From Ascidiella aspersa (lineage: Eukaryota): a DNA stretch of 64,000 nt. The notes under the pieces are model-generated. The model was not told where the DNA came from. It did not search any database and saw only the letters and a list, made by a program, of their open reading frames with translations. The DNA lies in NCBI GenBank assembly GCA_963924565.1, contig OZ004609.1, positions 21,452,001-21,516,000 on the forward strand, given 5' to 3'. A program made the position numbers and the translations under genes. Of the stretch, positions 27,501-60,016 are shown piece after piece (within the stretch, counting starts at the first letter, position 1; every line of letters starts with the position of its first letter).

Positions 27501-29882
27501 GAATTTGGTAATGTGCAACATCTGTACTAAATCTAGCTGAGCAAACATATGTGACGTGTGTAAGAAAGGAAAAAAACAGTGTGATATTCATTATGCCCAT
27601 GTTTAAGGGGTGGCTCTTTGCGATTAGCAGAGTAAGAAACGTGACTCTTGTGTGTGATTGGTTTGCCATTCTTACTTTATGCAGGCACTATATACCTCTT
27701 GGATTAGCTTGTGTGCTCTTATTAGGTTTGGAAATATAATGCAGTACACATATCTACCACAAAACTTTATTTATTTTTTTTTTTTTTAAAGAAAATCAAA
27801 AACAACAAACTAAGACATATACTGTGCACAAGGCACAACAAGCAAAAGGTTAAGTTACATTAGTGAAAACCCATGTTTTTATAATACTGGGTAATAAAAA
27901 TGATATATACCCTGGTATGGGGATTTTACCATAGTAATACTGTGTTCACTATTCAGGTGAAACCATTTCTAATATATAATTAAAAAAAATTATATCTCAC
28001 CACCACCAGGAGTTCGTGTTTCAACTGGAATAGTTCTGGCAAATTCCTTTAAAACCTCTTGACGCTGCTCTTCATTGGAGGCAGCAACAACTCTTTCTTT
28101 CACATTCTCAGGCATTTTGTACTACAAAATAAAAAAAAGAAAGTTCATCATTATATTTAAAAAAACATTAACAATAAAGAAGCATGTCAATAAAACACCC
28201 AATCTGAAAATGTATATTATAAACCACATTTTTTCTAATAGTAAGATAGCAGTGTTTTAACAAGTATATAATTGTTTAATTGGCCACAGAAAACGGGAAT
28301 TTTAAAACTGTGTAGAAAATACATTAAAAAACACATTTCACCAAGTAACATTTTCTTTAAATGCACTTCAATTAAAACCAGAAAGCCAAACAATGACTTG
28401 GTGGGCACCACCTGGTATCTGTGTATCTCATAAAATATGTATGAAGAGCAAAAAGCTTTGGAGAAATCCAGACAGTAAGCAGTACAATTTATTTATTCAT
28501 TGATTAAAAGCAGTTTCCCACTGCAGTAAAGAAGAAAGAAGTGAATATTATAATTTAAAACTGTATCTATTAAAAAATGTCAATCCCTAAAGTATTAATA
28601 TGCCAAGTATTTAAAGGAAAACAATATAAACATTTTCCATTGAAGAAATCAAAACTTACCATCTCACTTGGTGTTTTAGTGTCTGTAAATATAGTTTGCC
28701 AGTAGGACCACCCAAACATTCCAAATGTTATATGGAAAAATATCAAATAAAGCACTGCAAAAAATAAACAATATACATGTTGCAGACTGATAAAATTACC
28801 AGCTTTCTGGTACATATACAAGCATTTTTGGCTAAAATTCCTTTATTTTTTGCTATTCTTAATTTAAATGCTTTGTTCTAATGAATGTGGTGATAAACAA
28901 GGGAATAACCAAGCATTTCATTCATCTAGGAGTTAAATTTTGTTTTTTGTGACATAAGCAAATACATAAGGTGGGTGCGAAAGTAAAACTTGCCGTTTCA
29001 CATGTCTGTTTTTCTTGCTTTAACACTGTTAAGGAAATAAGTTGTTCTCGACCGAAGTTGTGCGCAATATGCAACTCAAATCTAGTTTCGAAAAATATAG
29101 TAATTTATTTGGTTTGGGAAAAATTTACAATATAAGATGAGTCATGGCTAATTAGGCAAACAACTTAGATTCACATTTTATTTGAAATAACAGTATTTAA
29201 CGTCTAATATAATAAGATTATTTGCACCTAAATGCACTTTCAGGACTTTTTTTAAAATAGGCAACAAAATTAATTCTCGCCAATAATTAATTCAAGACTG
29301 AATGTTCACATATATTGGTGCTCCTAAAGATATGAGAGAAACTATGTGTAAAAACAAATAAGGTGAAAGGTATAAATTCAATCTATTAAAAATTAAATAT
29401 TTTTTAATAAAATAATTTTTTGGGAAAAAATCTTCGATTTTGTGCCTGATTCTTTGGCAGATAGTCCAAAGTCACCAGCATTCTGCCACACTGATATGTT
29501 GGTAAGTCAATCAACACCAAAAATCTTATAAGCTCACATACCTTTTTCTGCAACAGATGTTACAGTATCTGCAAAACAAGTATTTTTATGCGATTTGAAT
29601 AAAATGTTGCAAATTTATTTGAACCACGAAACTATAACCTTATCAAGAATTTTGGGGCAAAACTTCAAGATAGGTTTGATGTATATTATATTAATAAATC
29701 AATTTCATAATAACATTTATCATGACCAAGTTTAAGATACTCCAAACAAAACAAAAAACATACTTACACACACATAATTCAACAACATATGCATAGTAAG
29801 ACCACAAAACAATTAAAATAATAAAAATGCAGGGAATCCATCTTGCAAACAAGGCACAAAATGTGCCAAATGACATCGACAT
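21600..29882 (-). CDS. ZDHHC2/15/20: ZDHHC2/15/20-family protein S-acyltransferase (DHYC variant), long isoform B, 334 aa
   Basis: Exons (minus): 29882-29768, 29568-29542, 28754-28660, 28121-28001, 25904-25802, 25730-25610, 25408-25276, 25127-25001, 23335-23235, 21661-21600. Phases are consistent (1005 nt). Family motifs: [41 protein letters not shown]...[48 protein letters not shown]...YWFIP, PaCCT-like GNGMTFP. Confidence 0.92.
22586..23073. mobile_element. Young hAT (Buster-type) MITE, 488 bp, in the last intron of ZDHHC isoform B
   Basis: Perfect 16-bp TIR CAGTGGTCGGCAAACT; perfect TSD ATGTAAAC; GCGGCCCA subterminal repeats. Confidence 0.93.
23599..24117 (-). CDS. ZDHHC2/15/20: Alternative 3' exons of the ZDHHC gene (short isoform A, 317 aa)
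   Basis: Exon 24117-24046 (ttgcag|T...GG|gtatg, phase 2/2) encodes [25 protein letters not shown]. Terminal exon 23638-23599 (ctaat branch point + tttctttttt ag|) encodes [12 protein letters not shown]. Minus-strand AATAAA at 23514-23509. Confidence 0.75.
26223..27262. mobile_element. Degenerate hAT element in a ZDHHC intron
   Basis: Left end CAGTGTTTCTTAAACT; decayed right end; GCTTAAAC on both sides (26215-26222 and 27263-27270). Confidence 0.5.
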
Positions 29883-30114
29883 AGTGAGGGATTGCGTGTC
29901 TTCGTTTTACTATGTAAATACTATATTTTGTTTAGAGAAAACACATTTCAGAGTTAAACTCAACTGCAATAAAAATTTATGGTTATATAAATTTACATTT
30001 TACACACATGCTTGTATTTATTATTTTACCGTACTTCTATACATAGCTTTAATTATGGTAAAAGTATATCTTTTATCAGAAAAATAAATAAAAGATTTGT
30101 CAAACTGTCTAAAC

Positions 30115-32091: not shown

Positions 32092-32268
32092 GGTGCTGGC
32101 CTAGAATCGTACCACAACAAACATTTTTTGGGTTAGGGGTGGGTTAGCGTTTGGGTAGGTTAAGCAATATTGTTAAATAATAATACTTGACCCAAAACAC
32201 TAACTGACACCCTAACCCAAAAATTTTGAAATTATTTTAATGATGTGGTAGGATTCTAGACCAGCCTC
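32092..32268. mobile_element. Short TIR element of the GGCGCTGGTCTAGAAT family
   Basis: GGTGCTGGCCTAGAATCGTACCACA ... TGTGGTAGGATTCTAGACCAGC, with an internal GGGTTAGGG/CCCTAACCC inverted pair. Confidence 0.7.
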
Positions 32269-32299
32269 TTAATTTTTTTCAAATATCTAATTTAGGAAT

Positions 32300-32787
32300 G
32301 GCGCTGGTCTAGAATCCTACCACATTTATTTTAGCACTAACAAATCGAGTTTTCAAAATTGAAATTGCAAGGAAGGCATAAAGGCGCTCTTTCACTTATG
32401 TACGTAAAAATTATTAAAAAAAAAACTTTCTTTAAATGCCGCATACCACAACGCATATTGTTTGGGTTAGGGTTAGCGTTTGGTTGAGGGTGGGTCAAGT
32501 TATTATTAATAATGAACATAATATTACTTGACCAACCCTCAACCAAACCGCACCCTAACCCAAACAATATGCGTTGTGGTATGCGGTATTATTTTGTTTT
32601 GTTTTTTTGCATAACTTTTCACGTACATAAGTGAAAAAGCGCCGGCATAAATATATAAGAATAAATATAATAATAATTCCTGACCGACCCAAACCCAAAA
32701 TCTAACTCTAGTCTATTACCCTAACTGAAATATTGTTAGCAATATAAACCCGCGGAAAAAAATGTGGTAGGATTCTAGACCAGTCTC
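32300..32787. mobile_element. TIR element of the GGCGCTGGTCTAGAATCCTACCACAT family (Merlin-like)
   Basis: About 25-bp TIRs. Matches the copy at 17148-17381 apart from the internal 261-bp insertion. Confidence 0.8.
32383..32643. mobile_element. 261-bp foldback (almost fully palindromic) MITE, Merlin-like
   Basis: Ends GGCGCT...AGCGCC; arms of about 120 bp; perfect 8-bp TSD GGCATAAA (32375-32382 and 32644-32651). The empty site is visible at about 17222 in the related copy. Confidence 0.88.
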
Positions 32788-33792: not shown

Positions 33793-35211
33793 ATGCGGAT
33801 ATACACAAGTCCAAATATCACACATCGACCATCAGTCAGTCGTGCAACTAGTTCACCTGCAAGTGGTGCACCGAATTCAACTATAACTGGTGCAAATAAT
33901 TCTAATCAGCGAAGTCCTGTTAGAACTATACCTCAACCAGTTAAAGTTCCTGTTGAGGAAAGTCCCTGGCCAGAGTTAAGACCGAGAAACATGGTGGAAT
34001 TGCAGTTAAAGGTAAAATTACTCAAAGATGGCCAGGACGACGAAATAAGGAGATTTAAAATGGACAGAAATGTTTTGAGCTTTGCCATACTACGCAACAA
34101 AGTAAGTTAATTAGGTTTTTAATCTTTGCTTCAAAAACATTTGAAGTTTTGTTCACCCCTAACATAATGCTGTATTCTATTCACACACAAGCAATGTGAA
34201 TAGAACACTACTAGACTCCAATATGACAATTGTTATATTACACTTCTGTAAAACTCGGCAGACTAGTTTGACTTACGCTTTGTTTATTTATTATTTCAGA
34301 TAAGTCAACTCTTTCCCGAATGTTCGACCGGAAGTTTCAAATTATTCTGGAAAGACGATCAGGATGAATCGATAGCTTTCAGTTCGGATGACGAACTTCT
34401 ATCGGCACTAGAAAATATCCGGGACAACCTATTCTACATCAATATTCGGGTAGCCTATTTATTCTTAAATTTTAAACAAGTATGATGGTAAGCAGAAAAG
34501 GAAGTAAACAATTTAGAATGAATGTGATTTTTTGAACGTTTTAACATCAGATGTTCAAAATAAATAAATATTTATTCGTAACGTTTACAAAATACTTTAC
34601 CTACTCTTATATAGACTTTGTCATTTATCTTAAGTCTAGTGACAACCTTTAGCCATTATGCTCCAGAAATAAAACACTATTGTGTTGCGATACTTGAAAT
34701 TTCAGGTTGAACCTTTTGGCTTTACGGGGTTCCCAATGACAGGCATGCCCGGATTTATGCCAGGCTTCGCAGAACAAATGCAGCAAGCTGGTTTTCCCAC
34801 TGGATTCGACATGGGAGCGCGAATGCCCAACCCGGGTGCTTTTAGTCCGACAAGTCCAAGCATGTTTTCTCCCGGAGCTAATGCAGCCGGAGCAGGAATG
34901 TTTGGTCCCGGAGCATACTTTAACAGCACACCAAACGCGTTTGCCTGGGGTGCGTCCGATCCGACAGGAATAAGTCAGTTCCAGGTAACTTTGTCACAAT
35001 TTTTATCGGTAAACAGTATAAAAAGTAATGTAACATAGACTGTTCGGTAAATATTTTTAAATTTATATTTTACTTTAATGAAAATCACTGGACTGTTCAA
35101 TGGATGCAAAACGTTTATCAACACAGATCTTATTTTGCTTTTCTGCAGATGCAACAGCAGTTTTCGCAAGGTGGCGGTGGAGCGTCAAGCTCGCATCAAA
35201 AAAAGTCTTGA
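33793..35211 (+). CDS. p62/SQSTM1-like PB1-domain protein with a G/F/P/M/Q-rich low-complexity C-terminus (266 aa, or 200 aa from the ATG at 33991)
   Basis: Exons 33793-34101, 34300-34449, 34706-34984, 35149-35211; all introns are phase-0 GT-AG. PB1: MVELQLKVKLLKDGQDDEIRRF...ISQLFP...FKLFWKDDQDESIAFSSDDELLSALENIRDNLFYINIR, with the basic Lys and the acidic OPCA motif. No ZZ or UBA domain before the stop codon. Confidence 0.85.
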
Positions 35212-36796
35212 GACTTTGGATTTGATTGGCAAGCGCATTTTGACTCTTCTTGTACGACAAAAGTTGAAGCTGCCATAAATACGGCAGTATAAAGCTAATA
35301 TTAAGCGTCTTATGTATCTTTTGTTTTTTATTTGTTTTTTACTGTTTTAAAATTAATGTGTTATTAGGCCGCAATTAACAAGGGTCATAACCTTCTAAAT
35401 TCAAGAATAAATTATGAGGGATCGATCGTCACACTACTTTTATTTATGATAGGAATCATCGCGTTTACTACGATTGAATTTCAGAAACGTATGCTATTCG
35501 GAAGAATGTTTCTGTGGTTATCATTATGCCCTTTTTGCAAAATATATCATTTGTTATGTACCGTCAAAAGATACTACTTTTGAAGAGGACAAAATACAGT
35601 GTTTCATTTCATCCGGAAAAAAATATTTTTTCAACTTTTTTTAGTTTTTTAAGATCCTTTTTTCGATTTAAAGACCCTAAAAACAATTGCAAATTTCTTT
35701 TTTTCTTAACTACTTGGTGCAATTATTAAGTGAGAATCGCCTGTAAATAATCTCAAAATTCGTCAGTTTGTAAATACTTTATAGCCTATACATATTAATA
35801 TTGCTAAGTTTACTTGGAAATATTAAAGCAATTTGGAGCCTTTTTAATCTTGATGATATCTCCCCAAGAAATTCGATTTTTACCTTTCTGTATTTCGTCG
35901 TATTTGACATAATCATTAAATGAATAATTGCATGCTGTACTCGTTATGCAATTTTCTAATAAAATTTGTAAATCTACTTGGTTTTGTTGTCTTGGCTTTT
36001 GCAGGCGTTAGACTTATTGCAAAGAATCTCATGTTTTTATTTAGTCTTTTATTCCTGGTGTGGTCAAAGCGAAAAGGCCCGTCAGTAACTGGAAGCAGCT
36101 ATAGCAAGCAAAAAGCATACTTTGATGATTGGTGAAAAACTTCGATAGAATACACGTAATTACAGTTTTTCAACGGTAACGTACATAAAATTTTCAAATG
36201 GTCCAAAGCACAAAATAATGTAGCATGGTATGTTCATCAAAGAAAACTTGAATTTTAGTCACCAAAGTTGGCGATAACTTTTTCATACAACACACCGACC
36301 AGAAGTAATCATAATAAAGAGACGACCAGCCGTAGACGAGTAAGTCCAGCTTACCGCCCCGGAAAATATTCAAAACGAATTACTATTTACAGTTAAAATT
36401 GCGAGCAAGACATATATTAGATACACTGCGCGTAATTAAGGTGTTTGTACACAATCACACAAGTAATAAGGGAACTTCTAACGGAGCAAAATACACGGAG
36501 CATTAAGATGGGAAATGCACACGACAAGAAAAAGCTGAAGCAATACACAGCAGAACGACCTCTACAAGCATTTTAAGTTGAAACAACATCACTTTGGAAA
36601 CAACCCCATTGTCCCGTTAAGGAAAATTGACGTCAACGTGGCTGTAAATAAATAAAGTCCATATTCCATTAAGAATTGTTTGTTCAACCCACTTCTCATT
36701 GGTCGAAACTAAGGCAAACTGAAACGAGCAGAAAAATGCCTTCAGTTAACTTTAATAAACAAAGGCGCGTGAACGCCAATACACAACGAGGCTCGT

Positions 36797-54700: not shown

Positions 54701-57700
54701 TTAACGGGGACACATCGTGTTTTGAACTCCAACATGCATACAATTTATTTTGTCAAATATACTCCTTAAGGGGTGGCTCACATGGTTACTGAATTGGTTT
54801 ACCAATGTCTGTGCATAATCACAAATTAATTGATCTTCCAAGGCATAGTTTGGTGGTCAAAACAATATTGGCGTCTAGATGTCTGGAGTTATACGATTAT
54901 ACCGTATCATGATTGGATTAATACTAAGCTAAGCATGATTTAGTCAGCCAAATGAACAATACTATAAAGTGCATGCGATAGATTTGTTCCCTCTACGAAA
55001 AAAATCTTAATAGCAAAAAGCAGCTGGTTAAAAATCAACGTTTCCCCGTTTAGACAAAGTCCAACAACCACTGATATCATTCGCACTTACCTGTGAATGA
55101 TTGTAGCAGGACGGATGGCTCCGCCTAGCCGCCACCATCTTGTTGGTGCTGGGGGCGCTCAGGGTACCGGCGCTCCCAGGCGTTGCCGGAACGAGCTTGT
55201 GATTGACAAAGGGCTTCTTGCGAGGGTGGGTGACGCGCAGGCAGCGCTCGCAATAGTAGGCGCGACAGGTCAGGCACGTCTTTACTGCGACCCGGGGCGG
55301 CTCCATGTCGCAGAACTGGCAGAAGACGGCCTCTTCCTCAAGCAGGTGGTGGTGTCTGGGCGCGTTGCTGGTCGTGTTGGACAGATGGACGTAGTCCTTC
55401 CCCGCGGCGCCGTGGCCATGGTCTTGCCCCTCCACTCCGGGTCGGGAGCGTCGATGGCTGCGACTGGGGCCGAGGCTGCCGTCGCTTTGCGTCGACAGAT
55501 TTGAAGCGCTGAAATGGAAGGAAAGAGTCAGTCGCTGCCGCACAACCACGTACATGAGCAAAGCAGTTGCCATAAATCGATTCAATGAAGCGGCGTTCGG
55601 TTAACTTCAATCGCTAACTAAAAACACAGTGATTTGAGTTAAGTTAATAAATTATAATTATAAGGTAATTTACAAATGTTGGCATTTATTACTGTGGAAT
55701 TATTTTAAGTGTAGCGTTTTCACCCTTTGTACTGTTCAGCAATTTATTGGCATTTATTGTTAGTTGTTAACAACGTTTAAATATGAAAGCACGCTAAAAC
55801 GTTTCAGCATCTTTTACATTTTTTAAACTGAATTCCTCCCGGTTGAATGAAATTGCAGCTGTATAGTCTATTGCGTGTATTAGTCCACGTAGCACTAGTT
55901 GTTTTCCTGGGTGTGACACAAAGCATTCCTCGGAACAACGAGCGAGCACTAAAGATGACGAAGCTCTCAAACGGCAAGCTGTCTGATGAGAGACGGGCTA
56001 AATCCCTTTCGCGCTCCATTGGCATGTTGCTATAGCGTTGGCGGGTCAACATGACACACAAAATCACGCCCAGCGCCCCGGTCTTTGTCGCCGAAATGCG
56101 GAACCGTAAGATATTTTGCTTCGCTCAACCGGTGAGTTTTGACCATAAACATTGGCCTCCCATATGAGATTGTGCGAGTTGATAAAGTCATCGTTGAGAG
56201 GCGCGTGACAATAGCGCGGCGGCCAATTTGCCTTTGTAGTCGCGGCCACGGCCGTCGCCATGAACACTGTTTCCGTACACGCGCAGTTGCGCGCGCACAA
56301 AGGCCCGTTCTCGCTCGGCGATGCGCAGCATTCCGGCGGTTTTGTGTTTTTCGATGTTGCAAGTGATCCGAGCCCAAAATACGGCAGATCGTTTTTTGTT
56401 TAGGAAGTTTAAGTTGTACCGTTGCGTCGTTCCATCTTTGTAAGTCGAGGGCCCAGCGCAGCGCACGCGTTAAGTGGCTTTAATACCTGCCTGGATCGCG
56501 AGGCTGACGGGTTCGAAAACGATTTTGTCTAATGGAGGAGCTTTAAACAGCTTAGGATTTCGGCCAGCCTCGGATAACGAAAACACAAATGCTTTTATTA
56601 ACACTTCGCTTGTCACAAGAGGAGGCCTTATTTTGTAAAGTCTGCGCGTAGATCAAGTACCACATAACTGGTTGGTGTGGATTAAAAACGTTCTAATTGA
56701 AACCTTCATAAATATACGCTTTTTAAAATAAAACGCTTTTGCATTTAAAAACTTAACCCGGGGTTTATAATCTTCTAAGAATGAGCGAGTTTGGTAGATA
56801 ATATGGCCGATTATGATATATATAGCTTCTCTAAAGAATACGAACAACACATAGGAATGAAAGTTTTATGTGAGATAGTTTAGGCATTTTCTGCCGCCGA
56901 ACCTTTGTTTACGAATTTCTCCCGCACAAAGCGATATCAGATGCCGAAGGAAAATGGATCGCTTGCTTATCGTCTGCATCTATCAAAATTTTGCCAGCGG
57001 CGGCCATCGCTCGTTCGCGAAAGAGAGGCGCGCATTTTTGACGAGTTTTCTCATCTTAAAGGGGCGAGCTGTCGAGAGATCGTAAGGTGGCAGCCCATAA
57101 ACGTGTAAATTTGTTTGCGGTGCCTGCAAATTGGTTTAACGCCGTCGGCCAGTGGCAGACACGCACATACCCCCCTAACTGTTTTTTTAGGGAAAACGAT
57201 AGCCCTGTGTAACCTTGCTTGAGAACGCTTAACCCGTGGGAGCCTAACTGGACCCTCGCCCCGTTTTCTTGGTGACTGACAAGCCATGACGAGGGTGAAA
57301 CCGATCGAAGCTGATGGTGTGTGGTGGCTATTTGGTATCGAGAACTATGCTAAGCTGTTTGGATTAGAAACGAACAAAACACCGCCCAGTGCACCAGCGG
57401 CAATCCTATAAATGATGAATAACGACACATTGTTTTAAGTTATAATAAAACGCAGTTTCTTAAATTTTATAACTTAATTGTAAACCATCCACAAAATTAA
57501 AATGGAAAATATATCAACTCGCGCTTTGGCAAATAAACGTCGACATTTAATGATGGCGTACACAATCCAATAAGACTGAACTGAACCCAAAGTACTTTTA
57601 TAAATGTAATAGGTTAAGAAAGAATGCAAAAAATAGACATAACGTGTCGAAATCTACAAAAATATTTCACCGACCGTCTAAACAACTACCTCAGCAAATA

Positions 57701-58924
57701 ACGAAAACACCCACCTCGACTCTTCCCCGCTGCTGTCCCCGAATTCACTGCCCGCTCCAACGACCCGCGGCACGGAAGATACGGCGGCCCGTCTGTATCC
57801 GTCCACTATGTTCTGCAGTGTGAGGTTGCGTCGCAGCGCAGCGATGCCTCGGTCATCAAGGGCGACAATCTCGCGACAGGTTGGACAGTGGAAGACCGCA
57901 CGACTTCCCGGCGACTCGGTAGGCCCGGCGCTTCCATGGGTGGCGAAGAACTGGTCGACGCAGGCGAAGCACAGGTTGTGTGCGCAGGGCAGGAGCACCG
58001 GCTCGTGGAAGAGATCCAGGCAGATCGGGCAGGTGAGCTCATTCTCCAGCGAGTCCATGCTTTGGGCACGCTGTGGCGCCGAACAGTCGGACTTGATCGA
58101 TGAATTCGGCTCGCTGGTGCCCTGATGCTGTCGGATGTTGTCGTCGTCGTCGTAATAATCCGCTCGCTCTGAGCTCCGGTGCGTCACGTCCGTGACGGTC
58201 AGCTCAGGGGTGCCGGCCTGGATGCGGCTGTTGATGCTGTCGCGCGACATGTTGCTGCCTACCAAAGTGACGGCGTTTGAATGGAAAGTGAGTCGGCTGC
58301 TGCCTGTACCGCTGCTGCAGCAACTAGCCCTTCTGCTGCTATCCGCACTGCTCCCGCTCAAGCCGATGCCGCTCGACGAGGCGCCTCCTCCACCTTCACG
58401 CCCGCTCTCGTCGGCCGACGAACTCTGGCAACTCTGACTGCTACCGCGGCTCAGGCTACGCGGCAAAGGGCTGGGCGTGTTGGTAAAGCGCGAGACGGGC
58501 GACAGGGCCCTTGGATATCGGTCGCAGCTACGGCTACGGTCGTTGCCGCGTCGCGTGCTCTCCATGTCGAGGTCCCGCTCCTCCGGGATCGTGAATCGCT
58601 CGTAGTCGTGGCGTGCCGGCGAGTAGTCGAGCCGCCGAACATAGGACTGCGGCTGATCGCGGGTATCGGTGTAGACGTACTGTTGTTGCTGTAACTGCTG
58701 TTGCTGCTGCATTTGCTGCTGTTGGATACTTGGCGAGATCTGATCTCTGATGCTCATGTGAGCCGTGTGTTGATAGTAGGTACACTGCTTGAGCAAGGAA
58801 AGCCGCTGCGCCTGAAAGGAGTCGGTGTTGTGGGGCAGCGTGTGATGACGAGCGCTGCTGCTGCCGACACCGATTGCCTGTTGGCTACTAACGGCGCTCA
58901 CGGGCTCTGGGGTCCTGGACAAAG
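36797..58924 (-). CDS. MID1/2: MID1/MID2-like class I TRIM E3 ubiquitin ligase (RING, B-box1, B-box2, coiled coil, COS, FN3, PRY/SPRY)
   Basis: Exons (minus): 58924-57715, 55508-55091, 53809-53690, 51714-51619, 48409-48302, 45797-45669, 43698-43676, 43413-43289, 38963-38800, 38277-38145, 37881-37706, 37403-37300, 37064-36797; all phases are compatible. [34 protein letters not shown]...CPTCR...[12 protein letters not shown]; B-box1 [14 protein letters not shown]...[15 protein letters not shown]; coiled coil [13 protein letters not shown]; [17 protein letters not shown]; FN3 WMIVPNIK; SPRY GRHYWEV...LTINTG..VPDHL. All closely follow vertebrate MID1 as I recall it. The first exon lies upstream (see next two features). 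Confidence 0.93.
47162..47220 (+). repeat. Short local tandem duplication
   Basis: GCACAAACAGAAAACTTTACACG occurs twice, with a partial AAACTTTACAC between the copies. Confidence 0.8.
48603..48785. mobile_element. Possible PIF/Harbinger-type MITE remnant
   Basis: GGTGAGATTACATGG ... CCATGTAAACTGGCC flanked by TTA/TAA. The same right end (CATGTAAACTGGCCTAA) recurs at about 50682-50698. Confidence 0.35.
54010..54317. mobile_element. hAT MITE in a MID1/2 intron
   Basis: TIRs CAGTGTTTCTCAA / TTGAGAAACACTG; TSD CTATAGAA/CTTTAGAA (7/8). Confidence 0.85.
58679..58723 (-). repeat. Interrupted CAG/CAA poly-Gln tract in the TRIM N-terminal extension
   Basis: Encodes [15 protein letters not shown]. 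Confidence 0.85.
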
Positions 58925-60016
58925 CTGCAAACCGTAAAAAGACGAAATTGAAATTTCAAGTATTAAAATCAGATTGCCTATAAATTAAATCCAAATAACA
59001 AAGATGCAATGCATATCGATTTGAACCAACCAAAACCGAGCAAACACCTAATTTGCTGTAATTATTGTATGTGGGCCACGGGATTTGTAACTAAGCAATG
59101 TCTAGATTTATACCCGACTTGTTTTAGGGTTAACATGGTGCAAGTGACTCGCCCTGCTAATTCAGCGTGTAGATGTAAAGACGCCAGATAAATCCCGAAC
59201 GCGGATGCGGTTTCTTTGTTGCTCTGAGTTCGGTAAACGTCAGGCTAGATATCGCGAAACGATATTAAACGTCACGGCGAGGTCAACTGCGGCAACACGC
59301 CGCTCTAGACGTCTCGCGTGTCGAACGGCGCACTTGTCACGGAATCGCGATCGCCTACAAAAGAATTCGAGCGAGCGAGAGTGAATAATTAAAAACTTGT
59401 TGACGGCTTCTCGTCAGATTAGGACAATTACACGCCGCGAATGTGTCCGACCGCAGAAGCACAGTGGAGCTTGTTGATACGACAAAGGAACTAAATCGCG
59501 GTTGTTGTTCGCGTTTTGAATCGAGACACGCCGTCGATTGCGAAATATACGGTATTTACATTTGTTTTAACATTTAGCGCCGTTGGCTACTTTTTATGGC
59601 CTCTTACCAATCAGTGGCTTCCAACTGTTCATACATTGCACGGTAACACTGTGAAATTTGGATTGGTTTAGAAACTAGGTACCAGTCCTTTCATCTGCTA
59701 CGGGGTTTTGCCCTTTCATCGCAAACCTTTTTATCTCTTCTGCACGGCAAGCGAGGCGCGGCGTTAGAGCAGCCACATCGCCGTGGCCAGCGAAGCGTAA
59801 ATGACTTTGGCATTAGACTTTACCGAAGGAAACCGAACGCAATTTGCAGTCAACTTTCGACAGGCAACAAAGCACACAAACAAAAATTAGCGTGTTGACG
59901 ACCGACACAGAGACCGCGCATTCCTCTTCGGCTTTTACTCTCCGCTTGCTTACCGGTCGCAAGTGTATTTGCTAAAAATAGAGAACATCCAATGAGATTT
60001 GTGCACTGTTGCTTAC

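Follow-up and report, generated by a model that had tools for sequence, protein, structure and literature searches.

A putative old p62 duplicate in Ascidiella aspersa and Ciona, with a PB1 domain and a low-charge tail of evenly spaced aromatic residues

The window analysed here, a 64-kb stretch of Ascidiella aspersa DNA, carries on its plus strand (33793-35211) a gene, hereafter half-p62, with four exons (33793-34101, 34300-34449, 34706-34984 and 35149-35211) whose frame is continuous across the joins and with three introns, all GT..AG and all in phase 0; the limits proposed for it in the preliminary description were right. Translation from the first ATG gives 266 aa, and translation from the second (33991), where the PB1 domain begins, gives 200 aa. 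The gene is genuine and transcribed: in stranded RNA, sampled to 6% of the run with 73 reads placed, the signal extends from ~33764 to ~35950 in a single orientation, that of the plus strand, and 2 reads and 1 contig carry the joint 34101>34300 of intron 1 (34102-34299), so that expression, asked for in the preliminary description, was found. We infer introns 2 and 3, where read depth is 0-1.5 and for which there are no joints among the RNA joins listed, from splice signals, frame and relatives. RNA depth over exon 3 is 0.6-1.5 across its first three quarters and 0 in the bin with the exon end, and exon 4, encoding the final 20 aa and the stop, is placed by its canonical acceptor and its frame (depth of 0.15 in its bin). 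The 3' UTR (35212-35960), with AATAAA at 35958, is covered on the gene strand at a depth of 3.6-9.6 up to ~35950. Four RNA reads jump 240 bases within it (35461-35702), with ends that are not splice sites and 16 other letters between, probably reflecting a deletion allele.

The 3' ends of half-p62 and of a large downstream neighbour on the minus strand (36093-58955) face each other within ~130 bases, the RNA of the opposite strand beginning at ~36070. This neighbour has a RING-like segment (57681-58955), a B-box-like segment (55031-55600) and FN3 and SPRY exons, and we take it to be a TRIM-type gene. Upstream, a divergent ORF on the minus strand (29691-29906), without a Pfam match on the exon, resembles the N-terminus of a ZDHHC palmitoyltransferase. 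A dispersed repeat, with inverted copies recognised by eye, also lies upstream of half-p62 (32092-32600); it recurs in intron 2 of the p62 gene of the same genome (L007:7383-7479; 75% over 104 nt) and attracts stray reads.

The 66 codons preceding the second ATG (33793-33990) form an open, transcribed stretch rich in S, P, T, N and R, which is possibly an N-terminal extension or, if ATG 33991 is used, 5' UTR. An open run of this length was reached by 1.9% of shuffles, both RNA variants inside it change a residue, and the record of the Ciona relative LOC100175581 starts at the PB1 domain, without such an extension. The first half of the PB1 domain (33991-34101) bears the basic face, with the equivalent of K7 at 34009-34011 and a double arginine at 34048-34053 in the alignment with p62; an RNA variant at 34051, in the double-arginine region, is synonymous. 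A PB1 N-half HMM, trained with the half-p62 row included, matched this segment at E 1.8e-14. Exon 2, of 150 nt (34300-34449), encodes the second half with the acidic OPCA face and lies above the Pfam PB1 cut-off (26.3 vs 23.6 bits); its PDB search returned 12 sequences at E <= 10, nine of them SQSTM1 PB1 domains at E <= 7.4e-6 and the remaining three at E >= 1.3, i.e. chance matches. AlphaFold gave the Ciona relative a confident PB1 over residues 1-90 (pLDDT 84-96), and Foldseek on this model placed the p62 PB1 on top and p40/p67phox, Par6 and NBR1 lower. The Pfam, PDB and Foldseek results identify it, at the level of sequence and of a modelled relative, as a p62-type PB1, as originally claimed.

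The polymer interface of p62 consists of K7, R21/R22 and D69/D71/D73/E82 according to the available part of PMC6978347. Aligned with p62 proteins, half-p62 retains K7, R21, R22, D69 and E82 and has Q at position 71, D at 72 and E at 73, with four acids remaining in the 69-73 loop. Position 71 is non-acidic in 4/4 rows of the half-p62 family and acidic in 18/18 other p62-type rows, whereas position 72 is an acid in 4/4 family rows vs 2/18 of the others; the Ciona protein has R at position 71, with K7 and R21/R22 intact. Therefore, the earlier proposal that both PB1 faces are present holds for the basic one and for D69/E82, but the acidic face is altered at 71/72. Since position 71 is non-acidic throughout the family, its choice of partners may have changed.

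The tail that follows has 113 aa, 93 of them encoded by exon 3 (34706-34984) and made up largely of G, F, P, A, S, Q and M. Of its residues, 7 are charged, 16 are aromatic and 2% are I, L or V; the tail is short and dominated by phenylalanine (14 F, 1 Y, 1 R). The aromatic residues follow one another more regularly than in shuffled sequences, with a CV of 0.57 against 0.83-0.84 (p 0.044 and 0.041 for two choices of tail limits), which bears out the description of a tail of about 110 aa with scarce charge and regular aromatics. The same tail had been called FG/GF-rich, and this did not hold: the 8 FG and GF dipeptides are not above chance (5.0 expected, p 0.10) and are not conserved either; what is conserved is the low charge and the regular spacing of the aromatics. 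In the Ciona tail 7% of the residues are charged and 20% aromatic, the latter again evenly spaced (p 0.002-0.005); low charge (6-7%) and scarce I/L/V (1-2%) are common to both, Q+N amounting to 12% in half-p62 vs 25% in Ciona, whose tail has more Y, Q and N and less M, A and G. The tail of a third family member (contig L020, see below) is 17% charged, its aromatic spacing is not significant (p 0.16), and it contains more C, H and charge.

At the level of alignment the tails of half-p62 and Ciona match weakly, their score being reached by 35 and 22 of 2000 shuffles, and the alignment between half-p62 and L020 was equalled by 80/2000. A loosely conserved motif marks the end of exon 3 (34913-34984): an aromatic residue, a W and then Q-F/Y-Q at the phase-0 donor. 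Anchored at the end, its match between half-p62 and L020 was reached by 24/5000 shuffles and 53/1890 window pairs, and that between L020 and Ciona, without anchor, by 11/5000 shuffles; the match between half-p62 and Ciona was not significant against shuffles. AlphaFold on the Ciona protein gave residues 97-179 a pLDDT < 50 and no helix past residue 93, and the half-p62 tail is predicted to be disordered on the model of this relative. When the tail rows were aligned, three beta strands appeared in the model at Ciona 134-168, also with pLDDT < 50, and these are to be taken as a lead only. Pfam returned no match at E <= 10 for any tail piece; the ESM Atlas gave no usable match for exon 3 and only feature matches < 0.9 for the Ciona protein. 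Homology of the tail to exon 3 of the p62 gene of the same genome was rejected, since 824/1000 shuffles scored as high and the resemblance is compositional only.

Neither the receptor modules of p62 nor the features of TFG accompany this PB1. Custom ZZ and UBA HMMs run on the 3741 ORFs of the window gave best E values of 0.14 and 0.39, half-ZZ positive controls being recovered at E <= 1.7e-11. half-p62 contains no CxxC, none of 18 Pfam ZZ matches lies near it, UBA_5 passes the cut-off only on contig C9 (one of two Pfam matches), and the FW domain (PF16158) has its four matches on contigs C6 and C9 and none in the window. Three LIR-like cores occur in half-p62, two of them within the PB1 fold, and the tail has no W/F/Y-x-x-L/I/V; the third, at residue 59 of the N-terminal extension, was rejected, its W being polymorphic and absent in both RNA data sets. 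Splicing to ZZ or UBA exons, which the preliminary description had wanted checked, was not seen in RNA, and the window has no such exons to join. No TFG appeared among the 12 PDB matches or the Foldseek rows listed, and the paucity of I/L/V together with the helix-free Ciona model past residue 93 gives no sign of a coiled coil after the PB1. The same genome has a separate TFG-like locus on contig C7, so named from its family features. That half-p62 is an ordinary TFG orthologue is therefore largely refuted by the PDB result and the existence of that other locus; the SQSTM1 matches, the Foldseek ranking and the introns common with p62 point to p62 and not TFG as its origin, and the gene fits neither of the two, lacking LIR and UBA as well as a TFG-type PB1 or coiled coil, just as had been suggested.

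A full-length SQSTM1 elsewhere in the genome, the other check proposed, does exist (G000:C9:266528-270018, minus strand; L007:4528-8018). Its 330-aa model comprises a PB1, a LIR core resembling that of Phallusia p62 and UBA_5, with a G/F/Q-rich exon directly after the PB1 and with no CxxC and no ZZ HMM match. An RNA contig joins the start of exon 3 directly to the end of exon 2 (loose end L007:6534), and because the PB1 exon is thus linked straight to the next exon there is no room for a ZZ exon. This protein groups in an 18-row tree with the p62 proteins of Phallusia (CAB3266552, 322 aa) and Clavelina (XP_076822733, 334 aa), which have PB1 and UBA_5 only. ZZ is consequently missing from 3/3 ascidian p62 proteins examined, and it is present in the 12/12 other full-length p62-like proteins scanned. 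The statement that half-p62 has no ZZ or UBA is correct on both counts by HMMs and Pfam, but the absence of ZZ is not distinctive, and because the three ascidian p62 proteins also lack it, sequence comparison leaves LIR and UBA as the distinguishing losses of half-p62. Two phase-0 introns interrupt the p62 PB1, and in the alignment both fall where those of half-p62 do, intron 1 of one coinciding with intron 1 of the other, and the exons 2 of both genes have 150 nt and the same phases, with 17/50 aa identical. Relative expression of the two genes is unusable since the ratio disagreed between runs, half-p62 vs p62 giving contig depths of ~2.7 vs 160 in run X4 and read depths of 1.5-6 vs 1-2.6 in run X5, comparisons too crude to use.

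An NBR1-like gene with PB1, FW and UBA-like end is found on the same contig as p62 (L018/L019, G000:C9:16090001-16110000, minus strand), and ZZ is absent from it by Pfam and by an HMM built from p62 ZZ only. Both ascidian receptors, p62 and NBR1, may accordingly be devoid of ZZ. No published account of a ZZ-less ascidian p62 was found in the open-access papers searched, a supplementary p62/NBR1 domain table being a place that could hold one. A second FW-domain gene, with a G/Q/F-rich low-complexity end, lies elsewhere in the genome (L016/L017, G000:C6:11995000-12005000) and looks to us like ILRUN/C6orf106.

The design of half-p62 recurs in Ciona intestinalis LOC100175581 (XP_026696554, UniRef H2XW65), a protein of 186 aa that is already in the databases without a name ('uncharacterized') and combines a PB1 with a low-charge aromatic tail, without ZZ or UBA. 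It is 48% identical to half-p62 exon 2 and has in half-p62 its best match in the Ascidiella genome (E 1.5e-8 vs 1.2e-7 for p62), the two genes being likely orthologous. A paper on LOC100175581 was not found in the open-access literature searched. The third member comes from two near-identical animal metagenome contigs, L020 (2960-4232) and L021. A 150-nt phase-0 exon (L020:2960-3109), whose DNA is 73% identical to half-p62 exon 2 over 105 nt, is followed there by a 393-nt phase-0 exon rich in F, G, P and S that ends, like that of half-p62, in Q-aromatic-Q at the donor; the first PB1 exon and the last exon were not located on these contigs. A fourth record, P0007, covers exon 2 only. In 20-row PB1 trees, from which four distant PB1s and P0019, P0022 and P0023 were left out, the four family rows stand on one side of a branch under both LG+G4 (81/84, unstarred) and C20 (75/90, unstarred). 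half-p62 and Ciona pair at 71/39 in the 18-row tree, beside ascidian p62 at 79/80, and with P0015 and P0007 added the family joins ascidian p62 at 65/81 and 78/78. A 27-row tree including TFG, Par6, MEK5 and NBR1 was discarded as uninformative, its long-branch joins splitting the family and placing Ciona with MEK5.

Pairing of half-p62 with the p62 of its own genome, as expected of a recent offshoot, was rejected (AU p 0.009 and 0.022), which places the duplication before the p62 genes of Ascidiella, Phallusia and Clavelina diverged from one another. The trees thus identify half-p62 as a putative old p62 duplicate whose family is common to Ciona and the L020 host. It had been regarded as a lineage-specific p62 derivative; derivation from p62 stands, but the gene is not species-specific, given the same design in LOC100175581 and L020. 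No orthologue in Phallusia or Clavelina emerged from two insensitive word-based searches, in which the exon 2 query scored none of 6 candidates and the family alignment found, as 1/551, the Ciona protein itself. A HMMER protein search gave 24 matches, four of which, long and of low identity, were omitted (P0005, P0008, P0011 and P0020), P0005 and P0011 being rejected as relatives since they are unrelated repeats. A match on contig C5 (L010) was likewise dismissed as a second copy, because it is a frame of 28 codons that contains a stop and lies in non-coding DNA.

In the current view, p62 bodies require filaments built by the PB1 domain, and ubiquitin chains bound to the UBA domain cross-link these filaments. 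half-p62 shares with p62/SQSTM1 a p62-type PB1 with K7, R21/R22, D69 and E82 and two PB1 introns, and with ascidian p62 also the want of ZZ and the G/F/Q-rich exon directly after the PB1; unlike p62 it has no LIR, UBA or conserved middle block, and the acid is shifted from 71 to 72 (p62 domain background in the available parts of PMC12669770 and PMC3613692). The combination of a PB1 with a low-complexity region is reminiscent of TFG, in which, as far as the accessible text of PMC10703350 goes, PB1 and disordered low-complexity region polymerise, phase-separate and drive assemblies; half-p62 differs by its p62-type PB1, the lack of a predicted helix after it and a tail rich in F/G instead of P/Y/Q. 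In the plant protein ARF19, PB1 oligomerisation and a prion-like IDR are both needed and the PB1 alone yields no condensates (PMC8178893, in part), but ARF19 is a transcription factor that has, besides its DNA-binding domain, a Q-rich IDR of ~500 aa, making it an analogy only. Metazoan NBR1, which is related to p62, enters p62 bodies by means of one face of its PB1, and PB1 alone does not predict self-interaction (both from the consulted portion of PMC9582228); NBR1 has lost the basic face and kept FW, LIR and UBA, whereas in half-p62 the basic face persists and FW, LIR and UBA are all missing. half-p62 thus stands outside the p62 receptor, TFG and NBR1 families, and by analogy it may work like a scaffold composed of a PB1 and a low-complexity domain.

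We tentatively favour, with not quite an even chance of being correct, the view that this old p62 duplicate co-assembles with p62 through its PB1, the tail adding contacts that do not depend on ubiquitin. The PB1 would bind head-to-tail to itself and to p62, thereby aligning the tails along the oligomer; evenly spaced F/Y/W would then cross-link oligomers weakly, ubiquitin not being needed, and half-p62 would tune the size, the material state or the turnover of p62 bodies. Because LIR and UBA are missing, it would act as a modulator of these bodies rather than as a carrier of cargo. An unlikely alternative is that half-p62 caps chains as a decoy, its basic face binding the acidic faces of p62, NBR1, aPKC or MEK5 and its altered acidic face halting growth, so that p62 filaments are shortened or diluted and cargo uptake is damped. 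The intact K7 and R21/R22 in half-p62 and Ciona, the acid lost at position 71 in all four family rows and the lack of LIR or UBA are in line with such a cap, but D69, D/E73 and E82 are kept, a new acid appears at 72 in the same four rows, and a pure cap leaves the conserved composition of the tail unexplained. The change at 71/72, derived and common to the family, and the long separation from p62 could also mean that the shifted acidic face is self-specific and that half-p62 builds its own TFG- or ARF-like condensate, or a reversible beta-gel, outside autophagy, a reading to which we give a comparably small weight. The conserved end of exon 3 and the three modelled strands at Ciona 134-168 would fit in it, but the pLDDT of these strands is < 50, the motif match between half-p62 and Ciona is not significant, and a basic face that is the same as in p62 leads one to expect cross-binding.

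A role as signalling adaptor, the PB1 docking aPKC, MEK5 or MEKK2/3 and tail motifs serving a folded partner without any condensate, seems decidedly improbable. PB1 kinase genes are present in the genome, where we take PB1 loci to be Par6, MEK5 and MEKK2/3 from their family features, and short tail motifs recur. On the other hand, tails that align weakly between species and yet keep their composition fit better to a material role. The p62 PB1 binds the PB1 domains of aPKC, MEK5 and MEKK2/3 with nanomolar affinity, according to the available part of PMC6978347, which speaks for kinase docking. Finally, that half-p62 is a decaying p62 fragment or an ordinary TFG orthologue is very improbable and largely refuted: low RNA depth and the two fruitless searches in Phallusia and Clavelina would agree with decay, but the frame is open, the splice sites are canonical and relatives exist in Ciona and L020, and TFG is contradicted by the C7 locus and the PDB search.

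Beyond co-assembly with p62, which we continue to prefer, it is tempting to speculate, with little confidence, that ascidians rebuilt the p62 system: the ZZ N-degron sensor would have been lost from p62, and apparently from NBR1, and half-p62 would be a dedicated nucleator whose co-polymerising PB1 and beta-strand-prone tail motif, through reversible cross-beta contacts, initiate p62 bodies with no need for ubiquitin or arginylated cargo. Neither a p62 relative without UBA and LIR nor the ascidian loss of ZZ was found in print in the literature searched. A natural relative of p62 with PB1 and without UBA or LIR in distant ascidians allows one to ask whether the cross-linking done by ubiquitin can be taken over by a tail and whether a subunit without cargo tunes filament length, questions for which Ciona is an easy system. 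As a testable side result, invertebrate chordates with a ZZ-less p62 would be a case in which ZZ-dependent N-degron autophagy has been lost in nature.

Duplicates of p62 may recur in other invertebrates. Other short and divergent p62-type PB1 records were met among our matches (P0019, P0027, P0022, P0023 and P0014, the last a mussel record of 126 aa), and two p62 proteins whose accession numbers are adjacent are recorded for Sinanodonta.
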